Assembly (NCBI GenBank): GCA_963663385.2
Contig: CAXXXD010000002.1
Location: 736,001-800,000, forward strand
Reading direction: 5' to 3'
DNA length: 64,000 bases
Origin: Oceanispirochaeta sp.
Lineage (GTDB): Bacteria; Spirochaetota; Spirochaetia; DSM-2461
Numbering within the stretch: position 1 is the stretch's first letter; each line of letters starts with the position of its first letter. The notes under the pieces were generated by a model. The model was given only the letters and a program-made list of their open reading frames with translations. It was not told the origin of the DNA and searched no databases. The translations under genes and the position numbers were made by a program. Of this stretch, positions 55,939 through 64,000 are shown one piece after another.

Positions 55939-56313
55939 ATGAAAAAGAGCATGATCTGTATCAGCTGCCCCATCGGGTGTCATCTGACGGTTTCCTGCAG
56001 TGACAGTGAAACTGTTACCCCTGAGACCATTCAGGTGGAGGGAAATAAATGCCCCCGGGGGATAATCTACGGCAAAGAGGAGATATTCGCTCCCAAACGG
56101 GTTGTTACCGCAACCTGTGCCATTGAATCGGGGCTGATGGACCGTATACCTGTAAAATCCACCGGAGCCGTAATGAAAGAGGATATCAACGGACTTCTGA
56201 AGGAGCTGTATCAGATGCGGCTGACGGCGCCCGCAAAAATGGGAGATGTGATTATCCGTGACTATAAAAAATCCGGTGTGGATATTGTCACCACCCGGTC
56301 ATTGCTGAGTTAA
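55939..56313 (+). CDS. DUF1667-like small Cys protein, third subunit of the trio
   Basis: CISCPIGC...GNKCPRG..Y...E...P.R motif. Confidence 0.85.
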   Translation: MKKSMICISCPIGCHLTVSCSDSETVTPETIQVEGNKCPRGIIYGKEEIFAPKRVVTATCAIESGLMDRIPVKSTGAVMKEDINGLLKELYQMRLTAPAKMGDVIIRDYKKSGVDIVTTRSLLS

Positions 56314-56576
56314 AACCTTTTCCCTACACCTTCGGGGGAAGGTGTGTTATTAAAGTTACTTCTCCCCATGAGGGGAGACCGAGAGGGGTCTGGCCTGTCA
56401 GTAGTAGTAATACAAATTTCCGCTTATATCGAAGGATGTTACACCCACCCCATAAATATTAAAATCCATTTCCAGCCTTTCCGGGTCGCAATAAGTAAAA
56501 TTGATGTCCCACCCCGTGCTGGCCTGGATCTCATTGCTAAGTTAAAAACCATTTCCCTTCACCCTTCGGGGGAAGG
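56299..56576. repeat. About 45-bp imperfect direct repeat (56299-56342 and 56531-56576) with BoxC-like hairpins
   Basis: tcattgctgagttaaaa-ccttttccctacac-cttcgggggaagg vs tcattgctaagttaaaaaccatttcccttcacccttcgggggaagg (3 substitutions, 2 indels). Confidence 0.8.
56398..56541 (-). pseudogene. Orphan alternative C-terminus of the adjacent lipoprotein
   Basis: LSNEIQASTGWDINFTYCDPERLEMDFNIYGVGVTSFDISGNLYYYY* vs lipoprotein end NEIEAQAGWPINFDMNTEETLVVDFTIQDAGGTYNINGKLYYYR* (about 22/45 identical); preceded by an in-frame TAA. Confidence 0.85.
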
Positions 56577-56608
56577 GTTAGGGATGGGGGTCTGAGAAGG
56601 GGGTTCTT

Positions 56609-58231
56609 TTATCGATAATAATAAAGCTTTCCATTGATATTATATGTACCACCGGCATCCTGAATAGTAAAATCAACTACAAGGGTTTCCTCTGTATTCA
56701 TATCAAAGTTGATAGGCCATCCGGCTTGAGCTTCTATCTCATTCGGTGAATTGTCAGGATGTCTGAACCAGACCATATCATCTACAGTATCAAGAGTCGT
56801 ATAACCGCTGGTATCACCGATGGTTATGGGAAAAGATCCGTCTGTTTCCAGCTCAATTCCATGATCGCCTGATATTGTAAAGTTCAGGGTAGCGCCTTCT
56901 GCTCTTGTTGTAAACTCTGCCGATACATCACTTGAATAGAAGTATTGGTTTGGTATGGAATTAATCATTCCCGTATATTGAACGGCATGATATTTCTGCG
57001 GCGTACTGCTGGAGCCGGTTTTATATAACAGATTCATATTAACAGCATCTGTATCGTAACTGCCGCTGTCGGAAATATTAAAACTGAAGTTTTGAACCTC
57101 ACCCAAGTTAACATCATCCCAACCGGGGAATTTGGGGTAGCGTACTTCCATGCCGATACTGTCATTTATGGCTGTTGAACCTCCTCCGAAATAATCCGTC
57201 CCATTATGATTTGATGATACATTCCATCTGTTGAATGTTGAATCATAGCTAATGTTATGGGATGTTCCGATACCGCTGGAACGATTAATAAACAGATTGT
57301 AATTCAGGTTTGTGTCATAAGAACCATAACTGTCATTGAATGTATAAAAAGCATAGATAAAGTTCTCATCCTGAGCCAGATATATCTCATTATAATCTGA
57401 ATTGTACTGACTATAACCGTCTGTTTCGTCCGGATCAGTATACCAGGGAGAAATGGAAGCCCAGTCCTCATTGTTTCCATCTATAACCGGAGTCAGTACG
57501 GGTAAATTCAAAACGGACTGATCAATATCCGGATCGGTCTGCCAGGTGGGTCTGAGTACGAAGGAAGGGGCATTATCCGTATCGTCCACGGTTCTGCTCT
57601 CACTCTCGTACCACATGTCCACATTCAGTTCATAAGCGGTCCCGTATTCCAGGTTCTCCAGGTAGCTCCCCTTGTAGATGGCCACCTCCAGGGCGTTGGC
57701 GTCCGTATCCATCCCGGCAAAGCGGATCTGGGGATTGGCAATATTCGTCCACTCCCAGCTTGTGGATTCATTCTTGTACCCCATCCAGGTATTGTACGAA
57801 CCGTTTATATCATGGCTCATACTGAAAATCTGAAGATGGCTGCCGTGACCTTCCTCATCAACTTCAGGTCCGTTCATATTAACATGAATATGCAGCTCTT
57901 CTGTCTGACAGGGAGGGTAACCGTGGGTTGATATATAGAGGTAAATATTGTTGGCGTCCTCCGCTATTTTTATCTGGTACAGGTCTCCCCCGTCGGGCAT
58001 TTCGGTACCTTCGGCAAGATCTCCTTCGGAGTCCACGTAAACCGGGGATATGGCGTCCCAGTCCGCGGTATCACCATCAATTACAAGACCTTCCGCACTG
58101 GCAATTTCTCCGGAACTGACGTTCCGGTCCGGGTCATAGGGGTTGTCGAACTCGTAGTCATTATATAAAAAGCACCCTCCTGCCAGAGTCAGGGTCAGGA
58201 GGGCCGCTAGAATATAAGGTGATCTTTTCAT
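56609..58231 (-). CDS. Acidic surface lipoprotein with two DOMON/CBM9-like repeats
   Basis: Lipobox LAGGC, DNPYDP linker, two 'VIDG...DW..ISP.Y.D...D...I..A.D.N.IY' repeats. TGCTATAAT sits just upstream of ATG 58231 (possibly leaderless; ORF track starts at 58240). Confidence 0.8.
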   Translation of the reverse strand: MKRSPYILAALLTLTLAGGCFLYNDYEFDNPYDPDRNVSSGEIASAEGLVIDGDTADWDAISPVYVDSEGDLAEGTEMPDGGDLYQIKIAEDANNIYLYISTHGYPPCQTEELHIHVNMNGPEVDEEGHGSHLQIFSMSHDINGSYNTWMGYKNESTSWEWTNIANPQIRFAGMDTDANALEVAIYKGSYLENLEYGTAYELNVDMWYESESRTVDDTDNAPSFVLRPTWQTDPDIDQSVLNLPVLTPVIDGNNEDWASISPWYTDPDETDGYSQYNSDYNEIYLAQDENFIYAFYTFNDSYGSYDTNLNYNLFINRSSGIGTSHNISYDSTFNRWNVSSNHNGTDYFGGGSTAINDSIGMEVRYPKFPGWDDVNLGEVQNFSFNISDSGSYDTDAVNMNLLYKTGSSSTPQKYHAVQYTGMINSIPNQYFYSSDVSAEFTTRAEGATLNFTISGDHGIELETDGSFPITIGDTSGYTTLDTVDDMVWFRHPDNSPNEIEAQAGWPINFDMNTEETLVVDFTIQDAGGTYNINGKLYYYR

Positions 58232-58427
58232 GTTTTTCATTATAGCAGAGGATCTTACCAGACTCTATGTTAAATTTAAACAAGCCCGTCATTTCCAATG
58301 GTTCTTCTGTCAGGAATTAGAGATAATCCGGTTAGTGAACGGTTGACTTTTACCTGTTCCGTTAAGGTTTGTTAACATGGGCGGTTTTTCTTTGACTAAA
58401 TGGCGGTTCTGTTTTTAATGTGTTTTT

Positions 58428-59309
58428 ATGGACCAACTGGATCAATTGGAAAGCATCGGCATCCGCATCCTCCGGGAAGCGTATGCCAACTTCAGGAACC
58501 TGTGCATGCTCTGGTCAATCGGCAAAGACAGCACCGTCCTCCTGTGGCTGGCCCGTAAAGCCTTCTACGGTCATGTCCCTTTTCCTCTGGTGCACATCGA
58601 TACCCATCATAAAATCCCGGAGATGATCGAGTACCGGGACCGTCTGACCAGGGAGTGGAAACTCCCCATGGTTTACGGGGAGAACGCGGAAGCCCTCGAA
58701 GCCAAACAAACCTTCCCGGACGGGAAGGCCGACCGTCTGACCTGCTGCCGGCTGCTTAAGGCGGAAGCCCTGAAGAATACCCTGAACGGAAGCTGGAAGC
58801 GCTACCGTTTTGATCATAACGCCGACCGGTATGCTCCGGATGAAGACACAGAGATGTATACCGGTGTCATCGTGGGCGTCCGGGCGGATGAAGAGGGCTC
58901 CCGTTCCAAGGAGAGGTATTTCAGCCCCCGGGACAGGGAGAATATCTGGGATGTGGGGGACCAGCCCCCCGAGTTCTGGAACCAGTTTAAAACGGATTAT
59001 GCTCCGGGAACCCATGTCAGGATCCATCCCCTTCTGGACTGGACTGAGCTGAATATCTGGGAGTATATCCAGAGGGAGAGTATCCCGACGGTCTCCCTCT
59101 ATTACAACCGGGGGGACGGCAAACGCTACCGGTCTCTGGGCTGCGGCCCCTGTACGGTTCCCGTGGAATCGGATGCCAGGACTGTGGCGGAAATTATCGA
59201 AGAGCTGAAAACCGGCAGGTTCGCCAATATAGCCGAGCGGTCCGGTCGGGCCCAGGACAAGGATGACGGGGGCGGTCTGGAAACCCTCAGGCGGGACGGG
59301 TACATGTAA
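58428..59309 (+). CDS. cysD: Sulfate adenylyltransferase subunit 2
   Basis: WSIGKDS PP-loop, [43 protein letters not shown]. Confidence 0.95.
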
Positions 59310-61117
59310 TGCGGAAAGAACAGATGAATATCGTTTTTACCGGTCATGTGGATCACGGAAAGAGCACCGTGGTGGGGCGTCTCCTGGCAGACACGGAGAG
59401 CCTTCCCGAAGGAAAGCTGGAACAGGTGAAAAAAGAGTGTGAGAGAAACTCAAAACCCTTCGAGTATGCCTTTCTGCTGGATGCTCTCAAGGATGAACAG
59501 TCCCAGGGAATTACTATCGATTCGGCCCGGGTGTTTTTCAACACGGATAAGCGGGACTACATAATTATTGATGCGCCGGGGCATATAGAGTTTCTGAAAA
59601 ACATGATTACCGGAGCGGCCCGGGCGGAAGCGGCCTTCCTGGTGATTGATGCGGACGAAGGGGTCCAGGAAAACTCCCGCCGTCACGGCTACCTCCTTTC
59701 CATGCTGGGAATCCGGCAGCTTTGCGTACTGGTTAATAAAATGGACCTTGTTGACTACAGCCGGCCTGTCTATAACCGGATCGTCCGGAGGTATACCCGC
59801 TTTCTGCGGAATATCAATCTGAGTGATGTCAATTTTATTCCTGTCAGCGGCCGGGAAGGGGACAATATCTTTCACAAGGGTGAGAACATGCCCTGGTGGG
59901 ACGGGGGAACGGTTCTGGATCTGCTGGATAATTTTGAAAAAGAGAAGGACCTGATCCATCTGCCCATGCGGATGCCCGTTACGGATATCTACAAATTTAC
60001 CAATCACGGCGACAGCCGGCGTATTATAGCCGGCACTGTGGAAACGGGGTATTTCACTCAGGGGGACGAACTGATCTTCTACCCCTCCGGGAAGAAAAGC
60101 CGCATAAAATCGGTGGAGGCATTTAACGCGGATGTCCCTGACAGAATCAGTGCCGGCATGGCTACCGGGGTGACTCTGGAAGAGCAGATCTATCTTTCCC
60201 GGGGGGCTGTCGCCTGCCGGTCCGACCAGATGCCCCCCAAAGTGGGGAACTGCCTTAAAGTCAGCCTTTTCTGGCTGGGGAAAGAGTCCCTGAAAACGGG
60301 GAAAGAGTACTTCCTCAAGACTGGAACCGCCAGAGTCCGGGCCCAGCTTGTGGAAGTTTCAAGGGTCATAGACGCATCTACCCTTGATGCCGAAGTCAGG
60401 GATAATCAGGTGAACCGTCATGATGTGGCCGAATGCGTATTCAGTCTGCAGAAGGCAATCGCCTTTGATCTGGTGGAAGAACTTCCTCAGACCAGCCGTT
60501 TCGTTCTGGTGGATGAGTATGAAATCGCCGGGGGCGGGATTATCCGTGATCTGGATGACCGGGGACAGGCCGAGTATGGGGAAAAACTGATCAGGCGGAA
60601 CCTGGAATGGGAGAATGGCATTGTAACAGAACTGGACCGGATGCAGGCTTACGGTCAGAGACCCGCCCTTATCCTTGTTACGGGAGAACAGGGCTGCGGG
60701 AAAAAAGTTTTTGCGGAAAAGCTGGAAAAAGAGTTTTTCCGTCTGGAGAAGAAAGTCTACTACCTGGGGTATAAAAGCCTTGAATACGGGCTGGATTCGG
60801 ATCTGAAGACGGGAAAGCGCTTCCGGCTGCAGCAGGCTGTCCGGGAGGAGCATATCCGCAGGATTGCCGAAATTGCCCATATTATGATGGATGCCGGGCT
60901 TTTTCTTATCATCAGGATTGATAACCTGTCTTATGAGGAACGGGATCTGATTCAGCTTCTGATCGGTTCGTCCCGACTGAAAACTGTATGGGTCGGGAAG
61001 GATATAACAACGGATATAGAACCGGACTGGCATATTAAACGGCCACTGGATGTGGACGAACACATGAGGAAGGTGGAACAGATTATGATCGATTGGGAAC
61101 TGGTAGAGGTACGGTGA
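59309..61117 (+). CDS. cysN: Sulfate adenylyltransferase subunit 1 (GTPase) with a degenerate C-terminal APS-kinase-like domain
   Basis: [31 protein letters not shown]; tail [10 protein letters not shown]...GLDSDL...[17 protein letters not shown] resembles CysC. Confidence 0.92.
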
Positions 61118-62409
61118 TGAGTGGAGCATTTGAAAAATCGGAATACAAAGTGAAAGCCCTCTGCTGCGGCAGAATCCTGAGCGATGAGGGACAGCCCCTG
61201 GTCTGTCCGGATTGCCCGGAATCTCATTTTTTAAGGACAGAATATGCAGACAAACAGCTGAAACTCAAAGACGATTCTCTCGGTTTGTATAAATACAGCG
61301 GATGGCTGCCGGTTGAGAGAGTCCTGGAGGGATCCGCCGCTCCCGTCAGCTATAGAAGTACCGCTCTGGCAGAAAAACTGGGGCTGGAAAATCTCTGGAT
61401 AACCTTTAACGGCTGGTGGCCTGAAAAAGGGGCCGCCATGAAAACAGGAACATTCAAGGAGTGCGAAGCCTATTCGGTTTGCGCCCGTATCCCACGGGAT
61501 AAAAAGGGCATTCTGGTTGTGGCATCCGCGGGAAATACGGCGCGGGCTTTTGCCCGGGTCTGCTCCGATAACAATATCCCCCTTGTTATTACCATTCCCG
61601 AAGATAATATTGGGGCCATGTGGTCGGATAAACCCCTGGCGGACTGTGTGAAAATAGTGGCGGTTTCAGCGGGGGCCGACTATTTTGATGCCATTTCCCT
61701 GGCGGGGAAGCTCTGCAGGGGAGAAGGCTATTTCCCCGAAGGGGGCGCCAGGAATATAGCCCGCCGGGACGGAATGGGGACAACCGTCCTGTCTGCGGTA
61801 ACCGCCATGGGACGAATCCCGGACTACTATTTTCAGGCTGTCGGAAGCGGAACCGGCGCCATTGCCGCCTGGGAGGCAAATCTGCGCTTTCTGAAAGACG
61901 GACGGTACGGGAACAGCAAGATGAAGCTTATGGTCTCCCAGAACGCCCCTTTTCAGATAATCTATGATTCCTGGAAACAGGACAGCCGGGGACTGGTTCC
62001 CCTGGATGATAATCTGGCCCGGGATCAGGTAACGGCCATGGATGCCAAGGTCCTGTCCAACCGCAAGCCTCCGTACTCCCTTCCCGACGGGCTCTATGAT
62101 GCCCTGAAAGACTCGAAAGGGGATGTTTTCCTGGCAGACAACAGGGAAGCTGAAGAGGCCGGACGGCTGTTTCAGGAGTGTGAAGGCATTGATATCTCCC
62201 CGGCGGCTTCGGTTGCGGTTGCTTCTCTGGTGAAGGCCGTCGAAAGCGGCGCTGTGGGAAGGAAAGAAAGAATTATGCTGAATATTACAGGGGGCGGAAC
62301 AAAGCGTTTCGCCGCCGAGTTTACTGTGCGGTATGCCGGGGCTGATCTTGTCTTTGATCCGGATGTGGAAGAGGGAACTCTGATAGACGAAGTTAATAAA
62401 TTATTTTAA
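61117..62409 (+). CDS. Cysteate synthase (PLP, threonine-synthase fold, MA3297 type)
   Basis: N-terminal CCG..CPDC; TGTFKECEA (PLP Lys), ASAGNTARAF, EGGARNIARRDGMGT, YFQAVGSGTGAIAAWE, VLSNRKPPY, LNITGGG; TGATG coupling to cysN. Confidence 0.88.
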   Translation: MSGAFEKSEYKVKALCCGRILSDEGQPLVCPDCPESHFLRTEYADKQLKLKDDSLGLYKYSGWLPVERVLEGSAAPVSYRSTALAEKLGLENLWITFNGWWPEKGAAMKTGTFKECEAYSVCARIPRDKKGILVVASAGNTARAFARVCSDNNIPLVITIPEDNIGAMWSDKPLADCVKIVAVSAGADYFDAISLAGKLCRGEGYFPEGGARNIARRDGMGTTVLSAVTAMGRIPDYYFQAVGSGTGAIAAWEANLRFLKDGRYGNSKMKLMVSQNAPFQIIYDSWKQDSRGLVPLDDNLARDQVTAMDAKVLSNRKPPYSLPDGLYDALKDSKGDVFLADNREAEEAGRLFQECEGIDISPAASVAVASLVKAVESGAVGRKERIMLNITGGGTKRFAAEFTVRYAGADLVFDPDVEEGTLIDEVNKLF

Positions 62410-62448
62410 TACTGGTCCGCCGGATGACGGATACAAGGAGATAATAAA

Positions 62449-63735
62449 ATGAGCGTGGACATTTTTGACAAATGTAAAGGAGACGGAGGTTACTTCGGAA
62501 AATACCGGGCGGCAGGAGATAAAGATCTGACAAGACCCACTATGGACCCCATCCCCGGAAAGACCATGATGTACAACAACGAGGAGTATGTCATGTGGTC
62601 CGTGAACAACTATATTGGACTGGCTGAAAATCAGGAGATAAAGGCTGCCGCCGCACAGGCTCTTGAAACATACGGAACAAGCGCCCCCATGGGATCCCGG
62701 ATGATGAGCGGCAATACCATTCATCATCAGAACCTGGAAAAGCGTTTTGCAGAACTGTCCCGGAAAGAGGCTGCCTACCTTTTTAACTTTGGCTATCTGG
62801 GCGTTCTGGGTATTGTGTCCTCCCTCTGCGGTCCCAAAGATACGGTCGTGGTGGATAAACTGGCCCATGCCTGTATCCTGGATGCGGCCATGATGGCAAA
62901 AGCTTCGGGAGCAAAGATCCGTTACTTCAAGCACAACAACATGGAAGACCTGGAACAGGTTTTGGATAGTGTCAATAAAGACCGGGAAGGCGGTGTGATG
63001 ATCCTGATTGAAGGCGTGTACGGTATGACTGGCGACCTGGCGGATCTGCCCGGCATCTGCGCCCTGAAAGAGAAGTACAACGCCCGTCTGTTTATCGATG
63101 ATGCTCACGGTATAGGTGTTATGGGCGAAAAGGGCCGTGGAACGGGAGACCACTTCGGTGTTCAGGACAGGATCGATATCTACTTCGGAACCTTTGCCAA
63201 GGCTTTCGCTTCCATAGGCGGCTTCTGTGCGGCCGATCAGGATGTTATCGACTGGATCGCCTACAACTCAAGAACCCAGGTTTTTGCCAAGAGCCTCCCC
63301 ATGGTCTATGTAAAAACCCTGGATAAAACCCTGGACTATGTTATTGACGGGGATAACCGCAGAAAGACAATGTGGGACAACTCGAACAAGCTGAGAGACG
63401 GTCTGCGGGATCTGGGATACTACATCGGCACAGGGGAGTCTCCCATCTGTTCCGTTTTTACTCCTACCGGGAGTGATGATCCCAATGGAATGGGGGTCCG
63501 GATGGTAAAATACCTCAGGGAGAATAACATCTTTGTTACGGCTGTTGTATACCCCGTTATCCCTCCCGGGCTTTGTATGTTCCGGATGATCCCCACCACA
63601 TCCCATACGGATGCGGAAATCAATAGAACTATTGAGGTATTCGCCGCCATGAAAAAGGACCTTGATCTGGAAGACACCGTAACGGAAGAGGATATCAGAA
63701 AGATCAGCAAAGTCTACAGAAAAAGACAGGACTGA
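62449..63735 (+). CDS. PLP alpha-oxoamine synthase, cysteate:acyl transferase (Alistipes SulA / CapB type, 3-ketocapnine synthase)
   Basis: WSVNNYIGLA, APMGSRMMSG, NFGY, HACI.D, EGVYGM.GD, DDAHG, GTFAK251, and FAK281SLPM where serine palmitoyltransferases have Ala. Confidence 0.82.
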   Translation: MSVDIFDKCKGDGGYFGKYRAAGDKDLTRPTMDPIPGKTMMYNNEEYVMWSVNNYIGLAENQEIKAAAAQALETYGTSAPMGSRMMSGNTIHHQNLEKRFAELSRKEAAYLFNFGYLGVLGIVSSLCGPKDTVVVDKLAHACILDAAMMAKASGAKIRYFKHNNMEDLEQVLDSVNKDREGGVMILIEGVYGMTGDLADLPGICALKEKYNARLFIDDAHGIGVMGEKGRGTGDHFGVQDRIDIYFGTFAKAFASIGGFCAADQDVIDWIAYNSRTQVFAKSLPMVYVKTLDKTLDYVIDGDNRRKTMWDNSNKLRDGLRDLGYYIGTGESPICSVFTPTGSDDPNGMGVRMVKYLRENNIFVTAVVYPVIPPGLCMFRMIPTTSHTDAEINRTIEVFAAMKKDLDLEDTVTEEDIRKISKVYRKRQD

Positions 63736-63736
63736 T

Positions 63737-64000
63737 GTGAAAAACAGAGTTACACTCTGGTGTCATGAGTTGGCTGGGGCCTCCCCGCAGGAGGTTCTTG
63801 CCTGGGCTTATAAAACATTTGATCTGTCCAGAATCGCTCTCTCTAACAGTCTGGGGCTGGAGGACATGGTATTAACGGATATGCTGATGAAACTCGATCA
63901 GGAGTTCCCCGTATTCACCCTGGATACGGGGCGTCTCTTTCAGGAAACCTATGATCTGATGGAAGAGGCTCGGCTTAAATGGAAGCTGTCCATGAAGGTT
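63737..64000 (+). CDS. cysH: APS/PAPS reductase, 3'-truncated by the window edge; not in the ORF track
   Basis: GTG start 2 nt after the upstream stop; ...SPQEVLAWA...SNSLGLEDMVL...VFTLDTGRLFQETYDL... Confidence 0.88.
   Translation, partial: MKNRVTLWCHELAGASPQEVLAWAYKTFDLSRIALSNSLGLEDMVLTDMLMKLDQEFPVFTLDTGRLFQETYDLMEEARLKWKLSMKV

Follow-up and report, generated by a model that had tools for sequence, protein, structure and literature searches.

We describe a five-gene operon, comprising cysD, cysN, genes for a cysteate synthase and a predicted cysteate fatty-acyltransferase (CFAT), and cysH, at the end of a 64,000-nucleotide stretch of Oceanispirochaeta DNA (hereinafter the window), and consider it likely that this operon encodes a self-sufficient pathway converting sulfate into the 3-ketocapnine-type base of sulfonolipids. 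The window spans G000:C2:736001-800000, i.e., part of the second contig of a 5.3 Mb genome (G000) that is assembled in four contigs and is 98% complete. Sulfonolipids are sulfur analogues of sphingolipids with roles in gliding motility and choanoflagellate development. Reviews assign them to Bacteroidota only.

Briefly, we advance the following route. CysD and CysN would convert sulfate to adenosine 5'-phosphosulfate (APS), which CysH, acting as an APS reductase, would take to sulfite. An archaeal-type cysteate synthase would then combine sulfite with O-phospho-L-serine to yield L-cysteate, and the CFAT would condense the latter with a long-chain acyl thioester, probably an iso-branched C13-C15 acyl group on the acyl carrier protein, to give the 3-ketocapnine-type base with loss of CO2. 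Finally, reduction of the base would fall to a short-chain dehydrogenase/reductase (SDR) whose gene would lie elsewhere, and its N-acylation to a further enzyme. The initial annotation of the window had proposed that sulfate activation in this organism feeds a sulfonolipid rather than cysteine; at the gene level this is supported by the grouping of the acyltransferase with the CFATs, by the lack of a match to the sulfite-reductase domain PF01077 and by the spirochaete host, with the lipid itself being a prediction.

Operon structure and gene assignments

Five plus-strand open reading frames (ORFs) occupy positions 58428..64000, the last of them being open at the window end. The stop of cysD and the start of cysN overlap as TAATG (59307-59311) and those of cysN and the cysteate synthase gene as TGATG (61115-61119); because of this second overlap, ATG 61117 is a more likely start for the cysteate synthase than TTG 61093. 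A 39-nt gap, with AAGGAG lying 8 nt before ATG 62449, separates the cysteate synthase and CFAT genes, and a single nucleotide lies between the latter and the GTG start of cysH at 63737. Thus, the co-directional and tightly linked arrangement originally described for these genes holds at all four junctions. The host is a spirochaete, as had been surmised: three FlaA genes are present (PF04620; no matches in any of 14 control genomes), and the nearest relatives of the CFAT come from metagenome-assembled genomes (MAGs) of Oceanispirochaeta (89% identity), Spirochaetales (80%) and Brevinematales (59%), the contig with the 89% relative belonging to the same genus (lineage Spirochaetaceae, Spirochaetota). 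Because of these FlaA genes and spirochaetal relatives, the contig is not one from a Bacteroidota genome, an origin that would have removed the novelty of the locus.

The fourth product is an alpha-oxoamine synthase (AOS) with the fold-type I domain (PF00155, 146 bits, residues 47-397), whose Lys251 aligns with the Schiff-base Lys250 of the Capnocytophaga ochracea enzyme (CO-CFAT). Its best matches in the PDB are Capnocytophaga CapB (28eh, 348 bits) and Alistipes SulA (7u7h, 326 bits), followed by SPT (3a2b, 230 bits), KBL (207 bits), BioF (159 bits), ALAS (151 bits) and CqsA (106 bits). In CO-CFAT, 18 residues surround the adduct of pyridoxal phosphate (PLP) and cysteate (PMC13692747), namely Asn52, Gly81, Ala82, Phe113-Gly114-Tyr115, His139, Cys141, Glu187, Asp216, His219, Phe245, Thr247, Ala249, Lys250, Met277, Phe278 and Lys280. 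In the PDB alignment as well as in a 43-protein MAFFT alignment, the spirochaete protein has the same residue at 16 of these 18 positions, with two conservative exceptions (Ala82 replaced by Ser83 and Met277 by Val278).

The portion of the SulA study consulted here describes Lys281 as the one clear difference of that enzyme from SPT (bacterial SPTs have Ala) and the K281A variant as inactive (PMC9304779). This lysine is present in all 18 spirochaete CFAT-like proteins in our alignment, the present one included, and in 14/14 Bacteroidota CFATs, with Ala taking its place in the seven full-length spirochaete SPT-like paralogues and Asn in both KBLs. Likewise, the CFAT-type Phe114, Glu188, Phe246, Ala250 and Lys281 of the present protein correspond to Thr, Asp, Met, Ser and Ala in the SPT-like paralogues. 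A maximum-likelihood tree of 42 rows, from which L055 (partial) and L044 (same contig as L010) were left out, separates the 18 spirochaete CFAT-like proteins and the 14 Bacteroidota CFATs from the SPT-like, KBL and Bdellovibrionota AOS rows with 100/99 support. The characterized CFATs are outside this tree, and two Bacteroidota rows scoring 567-613 bits to 28eh/7u7h stand in for them. The Bacteroidota CFATs form a clade (100/100), with the spirochaete rows lying outside it in a grouping of their own (89/71), in a tree that carries a long-branch warning since long branches meet in it. Taken together, these features lead us to assign the AOS, from its sequence, as a CFAT of the SulA/CapB type. 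The initial annotation had reached the same assignment and had named clustering with BioF, KBL or SPT as evidence against it; neither the tree nor the PDB scores show such clustering.

The cysteate synthase is similarly distinct. It scores 474.6 bits against TIGR03844 (cut-off 324.9), covering profile positions 1-391 of 398, a family which we take to be the one named after Methanosarcina MA_3297. Residues 13-435 match PDB entry 9k3c, titled 'Cysteate synthase', with 500.5 bits (E 4.7e-149); threonine synthases, which come next in the PDB ranking, do not exceed 51 bits. Hence, the protein is predicted to make L-cysteate from O-phosphoserine and sulfite, as first annotated; SerC, the supplier of phosphoserine, is encoded in the genome.

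The complete cysH product, which extends past the window, exceeds the cut-offs of the APS-reductase model TIGR02055 (255.8 vs 235.3 bits) and of NF002537 (275 vs 154 bits), in keeping with the annotation of its visible part. It displays a CC motif, CAPC and a C-terminal ECGLH, presumably the CC...CXXC and ECGLH cysteine pairs of the Fe-S type of APS reductase. As for the fate of sulfite, no sulfite reductase had been seen in the window, and we can extend this to the entire genome, which has no match to PF01077 (11 of 14 control genomes have one). In contrast, the observation that cysK is missing holds for the window but not for the genome, which encodes one; cysteine is therefore probably made from sulfide.

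Across 41 related genomes (G000 and 40 relatives, which are kin and not independent samples), an APS reductase above the cut-off occurs in 20: 18 of the 19 genomes that have the cysteate synthase and CFAT genes together (hereinafter the cassette), plus G018 and G029. The latter two are the only ones among the 41 with PF01077, in both cases within about 3 kb of cysH and without the cassette or a cysteate synthase. Conversely, PF01077 is absent from all 19 cassette genomes, reductases without this domain (e.g., the octahaem MccA type) not having been searched for. Thus, sulfite reductase and cysteate synthase are clean alternatives as partners of cysH in this class.

On the side of sulfate activation, CysD scores 340 bits against NF003587 (cut-off 195), as is characteristic of the CysDN-type ATP sulfurylase, and is 80-90% identical across the cassette loci of the relatives. 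CysN is barely above the cut-off of TIGR02034 (338.8 vs 336.1 bits), and its C-terminal 175 residues (about 426-602; window about 60584-61117) resemble APS kinase (PF01583, 42 bits). Hence, the earlier label 'cysN' is correct as to the GTPase subunit but not as a plain CysN. This tail falls well short of the kinase model TIGR00455 (43.7 vs 138.7 bits), and the protein of the model for a bifunctional CysNC with functional APS kinase (NF004035, 434 vs 715 bits). When the tails from six cassette loci were aligned with the true APS kinase encoded in this genome, all six had an unconserved P-loop, LGYKS or similar in place of LDGDN and a loss of about 22 lid residues (we take the P-loop, the Asp-Gly-Asp stretch and the lid to be the motifs of APS kinase). 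The kinase domain of the operon CysN thus looks dead, and an inactive tail means that this protein would not turn APS into 3'-phosphoadenosine 5'-phosphosulfate (PAPS). The tail, which may serve a regulatory or structural function, is retained in all aligned cassette CysNs.

The genome has a second sulfate-activation set, cysD2-cysQ-cysNC, whose cysD is 38% identical to that of the operon and whose cysNC provides the one true APS kinase of the genome. Since this separate set with a true kinase exists, the operon ATP sulfurylase is a second, specialized copy. The set is embedded in a polysaccharide cluster that also encodes glycosyltransferases, UDP-galactopyranose mutase and an ABC-2 exporter; its probable role is the supply of PAPS for the sulfation of a polysaccharide. 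A SulP transporter is also encoded in the genome.

Distribution of the cassette and a co-inherited VOC-fold protein

A cysteate synthase above the cut-off is found in 20 of the 41 genomes, CFAT-like orthologues (at least 53% identity) in 20, plus a fragment in G010, and the two together in the 19 cassette genomes, which span several families. G015, a genome that is 74% complete, has a cysteate synthase and no CFAT-like gene. Among the Oceanispirochaeta genomes searched, 9 of 11, G000 included, have the operon, and G005 and G010 are without the cassette. In G010, a minus-strand CFAT fragment (G010:C72:28149-28604; 84% identity over residues 151-302) contains an in-frame TGA and lies beside an E1-FabH fusion gene; because this genome shows no match to the cysteate synthase, cysH or the VOC protein discussed below, the fragment is best seen as the remnant of a decayed cassette. 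The order cysD-cysN-cysteate synthase-CFAT is contiguous in the Brevinematales MAG, in G039 and in every locus of the genera g1, g2 and g5, with cysH being next in line only in g1 and the Brevinematales MAG and far away elsewhere. In a broader sample of 201 genomes drawn evenly across the phylum, 21 have a CFAT-like gene (E up to 1e-110), among them 15 of the 17 genomes from one family in another class. Long vertical descent fits this pattern, since the CFAT tree follows genus and family labels.

In other families of the class, an SPT-like AOS is found instead of the CFAT-like gene (loci L046-L051 and L054, from G029, G036, G031, G032, G025, G027 and G030). These proteins score 467-520 bits against NF047600, below its cut-off of 640, and have Thr114, Ser142, Asp188, Met246, Ser250 and Ala281. 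G027 is the only genome with both an SPT-like AOS and a CFAT-like gene. The distribution of the two types echoes the 'sphingolipid or sulfonolipid' split of Bacteroidota drawn in a 2023 review.

Past the window end come the rest of cysH, a lipoprotein-like ORF, an E1-lipoyl-FabH fusion gene and, on the opposite strand, the gene of a two-domain VOC-fold protein (Table 1). This last protein follows the CFAT-like gene closely: it occurs in 21 of the 41 genomes, i.e., in all 20 with a CFAT-like gene and in G015, and in none of the remaining 20, a group to which the congeners G005 and G010 belong. Its gene is the convergent neighbor of the CFAT gene in G027, G028, G034 and G039, from four families; in g2 and g5, a long distance separates it from the cassette. 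At the locus in G034 (L041:8372-9404, plus strand), the VOC homologue beside the CFAT gene is matched by two segments in separate reading frames, possibly owing to a frameshift. Homologues with 52-60% identity are found in Bacteroidota and Rhodothermales; among 121 Bacteroidota genomes, the protein is present in 24 of 43 that are CFAT-positive and in none of 78 that are CFAT-negative. At the level of loci, the VOC protein and four other query proteins had no tblastn match in 17 loci (L013-L029), of which 14 are Bacteroidota CFAT loci. With the predicted structure of the VOC protein (pLDDT 92.6), Foldseek retrieves nothing more specific than generic VOC proteins of two domains, e.g., PcpA, maize glyoxalase I and GLOD4, with identities not above 15%, and a sequence search of the PDB yields a single glyoxalase (E 5e-4). 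In anaerobes, a role as isomerase, epimerase or lyase appears more plausible than one as oxygenase.

This pattern leads us to a broader proposal, which we put forward tentatively and with appreciably less confidence than the route itself: several classes of Spirochaetota might make capnine-type sulfonolipids from sulfate via a self-contained operon, such that these lipids would not be a trait of Bacteroidota, and the VOC-fold metalloprotein might be an undescribed oxygen-independent enzyme of sulfonolipid synthesis or modification.

The other neighbors show no such association. For the 399-aa lipoprotein-like ORF (L001:6460-7659), neither Pfam nor NCBIfam gave a match and tblastn retrieved none from 19 related loci, and we do not count it as a component. 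The E1alpha-E1beta-lipoyl-FabH fusion, which is represented by more than 120 full-length clusters in spirochaetes, was likewise rejected as a dedicated part: it occurs in 16 of the 41 genomes without correlation with the cassette, being present without it in G005, G010, G029, G033 and G035, not found in the cassette bearers g2, g5, G027 and G039, and adjoining it only in g1 loci. We found no description of this fusion in the literature; it may supply branched acyl chains by starting branched fatty acids from 2-oxoacids without CoA. An Rfam scan of positions 56000-64000 (E up to 0.1) detected no riboswitch ahead of cysD, and its one match, to the Leptospira small RNA 30_292 inside cysN, was taken as chance (29.7 bits against a gathering threshold of 112). 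Counts from a promoter and terminator scan of L001 1-12800 were near the shuffled expectation (17 vs 10.6 and 20 vs 14.4). Elsewhere in the genome, a match resembling sulfopyruvate decarboxylase was rejected as such, being a phosphonopyruvate decarboxylase (TIGR03297, 482 bits) that adjoins phosphoenolpyruvate (PEP) mutase. The corresponding phosphonate cluster (L058:3499-7072 = G000:C2:1383499-1387072) comprises a cytidylyltransferase-fused PEP mutase (TIGR02320, 385 bits), the TIGR03297 gene and an Fe-alcohol dehydrogenase gene, and an IS1380 transposase gene adjoins it.

Table 1. Genes of the operon and other features of the genome. Plain numbers are window positions; L and G labels denote loci and genomes with their contigs.
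Feature	Position	Strand	Length	Family or remark
cysD, sulfate adenylyltransferase small subunit	58428..59309	+	293 aa	NF003587, PF01507
cysN, GTPase subunit of ATP sulfurylase with degenerate APS-kinase-like C-terminal domain	59309..61117	+	602 aa	TIGR02034
Cysteate synthase, archaeal (MA_3297) type	61117..62409	+		TIGR03844; longest ORF 61093-62409, 438 aa from the first TTG
Predicted CFAT, CapB/SulA type AOS	62449..63735	+	428 aa	Catalytic Lys251
cysH, thioredoxin-type APS reductase	63737..64000; full gene G000:C2:799737-800444 (L001:5737-6444)	+	235 aa	TIGR02055
2-oxoacid dehydrogenase E1alpha-E1beta-lipoyl-FabH (KAS III) fusion	L001:7850-11191 = G000:C2:801850-805191	+	1113 aa	Without E2 catalytic core
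Two-domain VOC (glyoxalase-fold) protein	L001:11512-12579 = G000:C2:805515-806579	-	355 aa	5.5 kb past the window end
cysD2-cysQ-cysNC, second sulfate-activation set	L056:5998-9612 = G000:C4:617998-621612			APS kinase PF01583 220 bits, TIGR00455 244 bits

The predicted lipid and alternative readings

Several observations weigh against the proposed route, and we take them together with the three alternatives on which they bear. We begin with the lipid. For two cultured Oceanispirochaeta strains, a published study (PMC11129491) gives iso-C13:0, C14:0, iso-C15:0 and C16:0 as the main fatty acids (Table S45), of which the iso forms speak for the proposed route. The intact polar lipids, namely hexosyl-diacylglycerols, phosphatidylcholine, phosphatidylglycerol, an unknown phospho-sugar lipid and cardiolipins, add up to 100% with no capnine lipid among them (Table S46); the parts consulted also cite earlier capnine lipids that the same authors had reported from Marinifilaceae (Bacteroidota isolates). 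This table therefore lowers the odds of an abundant sulfonolipid, and has no bearing on the function of the enzymes. Further, the SDR of the CapC type and the N-acyltransferase that the initial annotation had suggested might lie beyond base 64000 did not materialize: neither lies within 14 kb downstream of the window, the range over which they were sought with no genome-wide SDR search being made, and other genes are found there instead. This is a weak counterpoint, since ketocapnine reductases in Bacteroidota are also scattered, being described in the consulted part of one study as unlinked, promiscuous SDRs (PMC11211663). In terms of gene content, G034 has a CFAT-like gene without a match to the cysteate synthase or cysH, and G027 is the sole cassette genome without a cysH match.

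These findings bear on the best-surviving alternative, namely that the enzymes act as proposed but their product is no bulk lipid, being rather a minor, conditional or exported sulfonated base or signal, or that the operon is silent in usual culture. The lipid table and the lack of a reductase or N-acyltransferase gene in the neighborhood speak for it, as do the loss of the cassette in G005 and its decay to a CFAT fragment in G010, since losses by members of the genus mean that the cassette is dispensable. Yet a second ATP sulfurylase together with an APS reductase would be a high price to pay for a trace product, 19 of the 41 genomes, from several families, retain the cassette, and the lipid data are of positive ions from strains that may or may not carry the operon. 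On balance, we regard this alternative as possible but on the unlikely side.

A second alternative holds that the AOS uses serine, glycine or alanine, as do SPT, KBL and BioF, and that cysteate goes to sulfopyruvate, taurine or an osmolyte. In its favor, identity to the Bacteroidota CFATs is only about 40%, the AOS is below every NCBIfam equivalog cut-off, the SPT, BioF and KBL models scoring about equally (288-297 bits), and the substrate choice of these enzymes is not fixed by, and hence not readable from, first-shell residues alone (PMC13692747). Against this stand the higher PDB scores to the CFATs, the CFAT-like pocket residues, Lys281 foremost, the 100/99 split in the tree and the translational linkage of the CFAT gene to that of the cysteate synthase. 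Moreover, the only gene of the genome resembling sulfopyruvate decarboxylase is the phosphonopyruvate decarboxylase noted above, and the gene of the genome's other AOS, which was not scored against KBL models, forms a pair with one for a Zn-dependent alcohol dehydrogenase, an arrangement that resembles KBL-TDH pairs. We accordingly consider a different amino acid substrate to be improbable.

Ordinary assimilatory sulfate reduction to cysteine via an unrecognized sulfite reductase, with the PLP enzymes as bystanders, is the weakest alternative: although cysD, cysN and cysH are classical assimilation genes, cysK is in the genome and the search for sulfite reductases was confined to PF01077, the lack of this domain in the genome and in all 19 cassette genomes, its presence beside cysH in just the two genomes without the cassette, and the placement of the cysteate synthase and CFAT genes, which separate cysN from cysH and have junctions that overlap or span 1-39 nt, make it highly improbable.

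Significance and comparison with known systems

The sulfate-to-sulfonolipid route that we favor would be new to the phylum. In line with the novelty first suggested for it, none of the literature matches listed reports sulfonolipids or their genes from Spirochaetota. Two surveys record loose homologues 'across 13 phyla' and in '21 phyla', with spirochaetes unnamed in their texts and text supplements (one supplement being a picture PDF outside this coverage). What the present locus adds is an operon that includes cysH and would cover all steps from sulfate to the base, the apparently dead kinase domain of CysN, the alternative partners of cysH and the phyletic pattern of the VOC protein, along with the bearing of the published lipid tables, which argue against an abundant product. 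According to the consulted parts of two studies, sulfonolipids act in host immune signaling (PMC11525784, PMC11211663). If free-living spirochaetes make them too, the value of these lipids as biomarkers in taxonomy would change and a second phylum would become available for studying their function. It would also point to an anaerobe route that spends sulfate on a membrane head group, with the sulfur of cysteine coming from sulfide. The question is directly testable since cultured Oceanispirochaeta strains exist, and the VOC-fold protein, being co-inherited, provides a starting point for finding an unknown step common to spirochaetes and Bacteroidota.

Among known systems, the assimilatory CysDN-CysH(-CysIJ) pathway, including the APS reductase route of Pseudomonas and Bacillus, has CysD, CysN and APS reductase in common with the operon. 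It differs in that the spirochaete genome is without PF01077, CysN has the degenerate kinase tail, and the operon's own consumer of sulfite would be the cysteate synthase. The latter agrees with the archaeal-type family (TIGR03844) in passing the equivalog model and in its near full-length match to 9k3c, and stands apart by the seat of its gene between those of the ATP sulfurylase and the CFAT. Alistipes and Odoribacter also use the archaeal type, and the CapA type, to which the spirochaete enzyme does not belong, has been ascribed to environmental Bacteroidota (PMC10191378).

With CapB/CO-CFAT of Capnocytophaga ochracea (28eh, 28fa) and SulA of Alistipes finegoldii (7u7h), the predicted spirochaete acyltransferase has the fold, the length, Lys251, Lys281 and the 16 pocket residues in common; it differs in the modest identity to Bacteroidota CFATs, in Ser83 and Val278, and in the phylum of its host. 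As for the capnine/sulfobacin pathway of Bacteroidota as a whole, the first two dedicated steps are encoded alike and the reductases there are unlinked SDRs, going by the consulted part of the study cited above (PMC11211663); the spirochaete operon, whose product is a prediction and which has no reductase or N-acyltransferase gene within 14 kb downstream, has a built-in supply of sulfite. The difference is sharpest at the level of gene neighborhoods: none of the 14 Bacteroidota CFAT loci has a cysteate synthase or cysDNH within 10 kb, whereas the spirochaete CFAT gene is joined to its cysteate supply.

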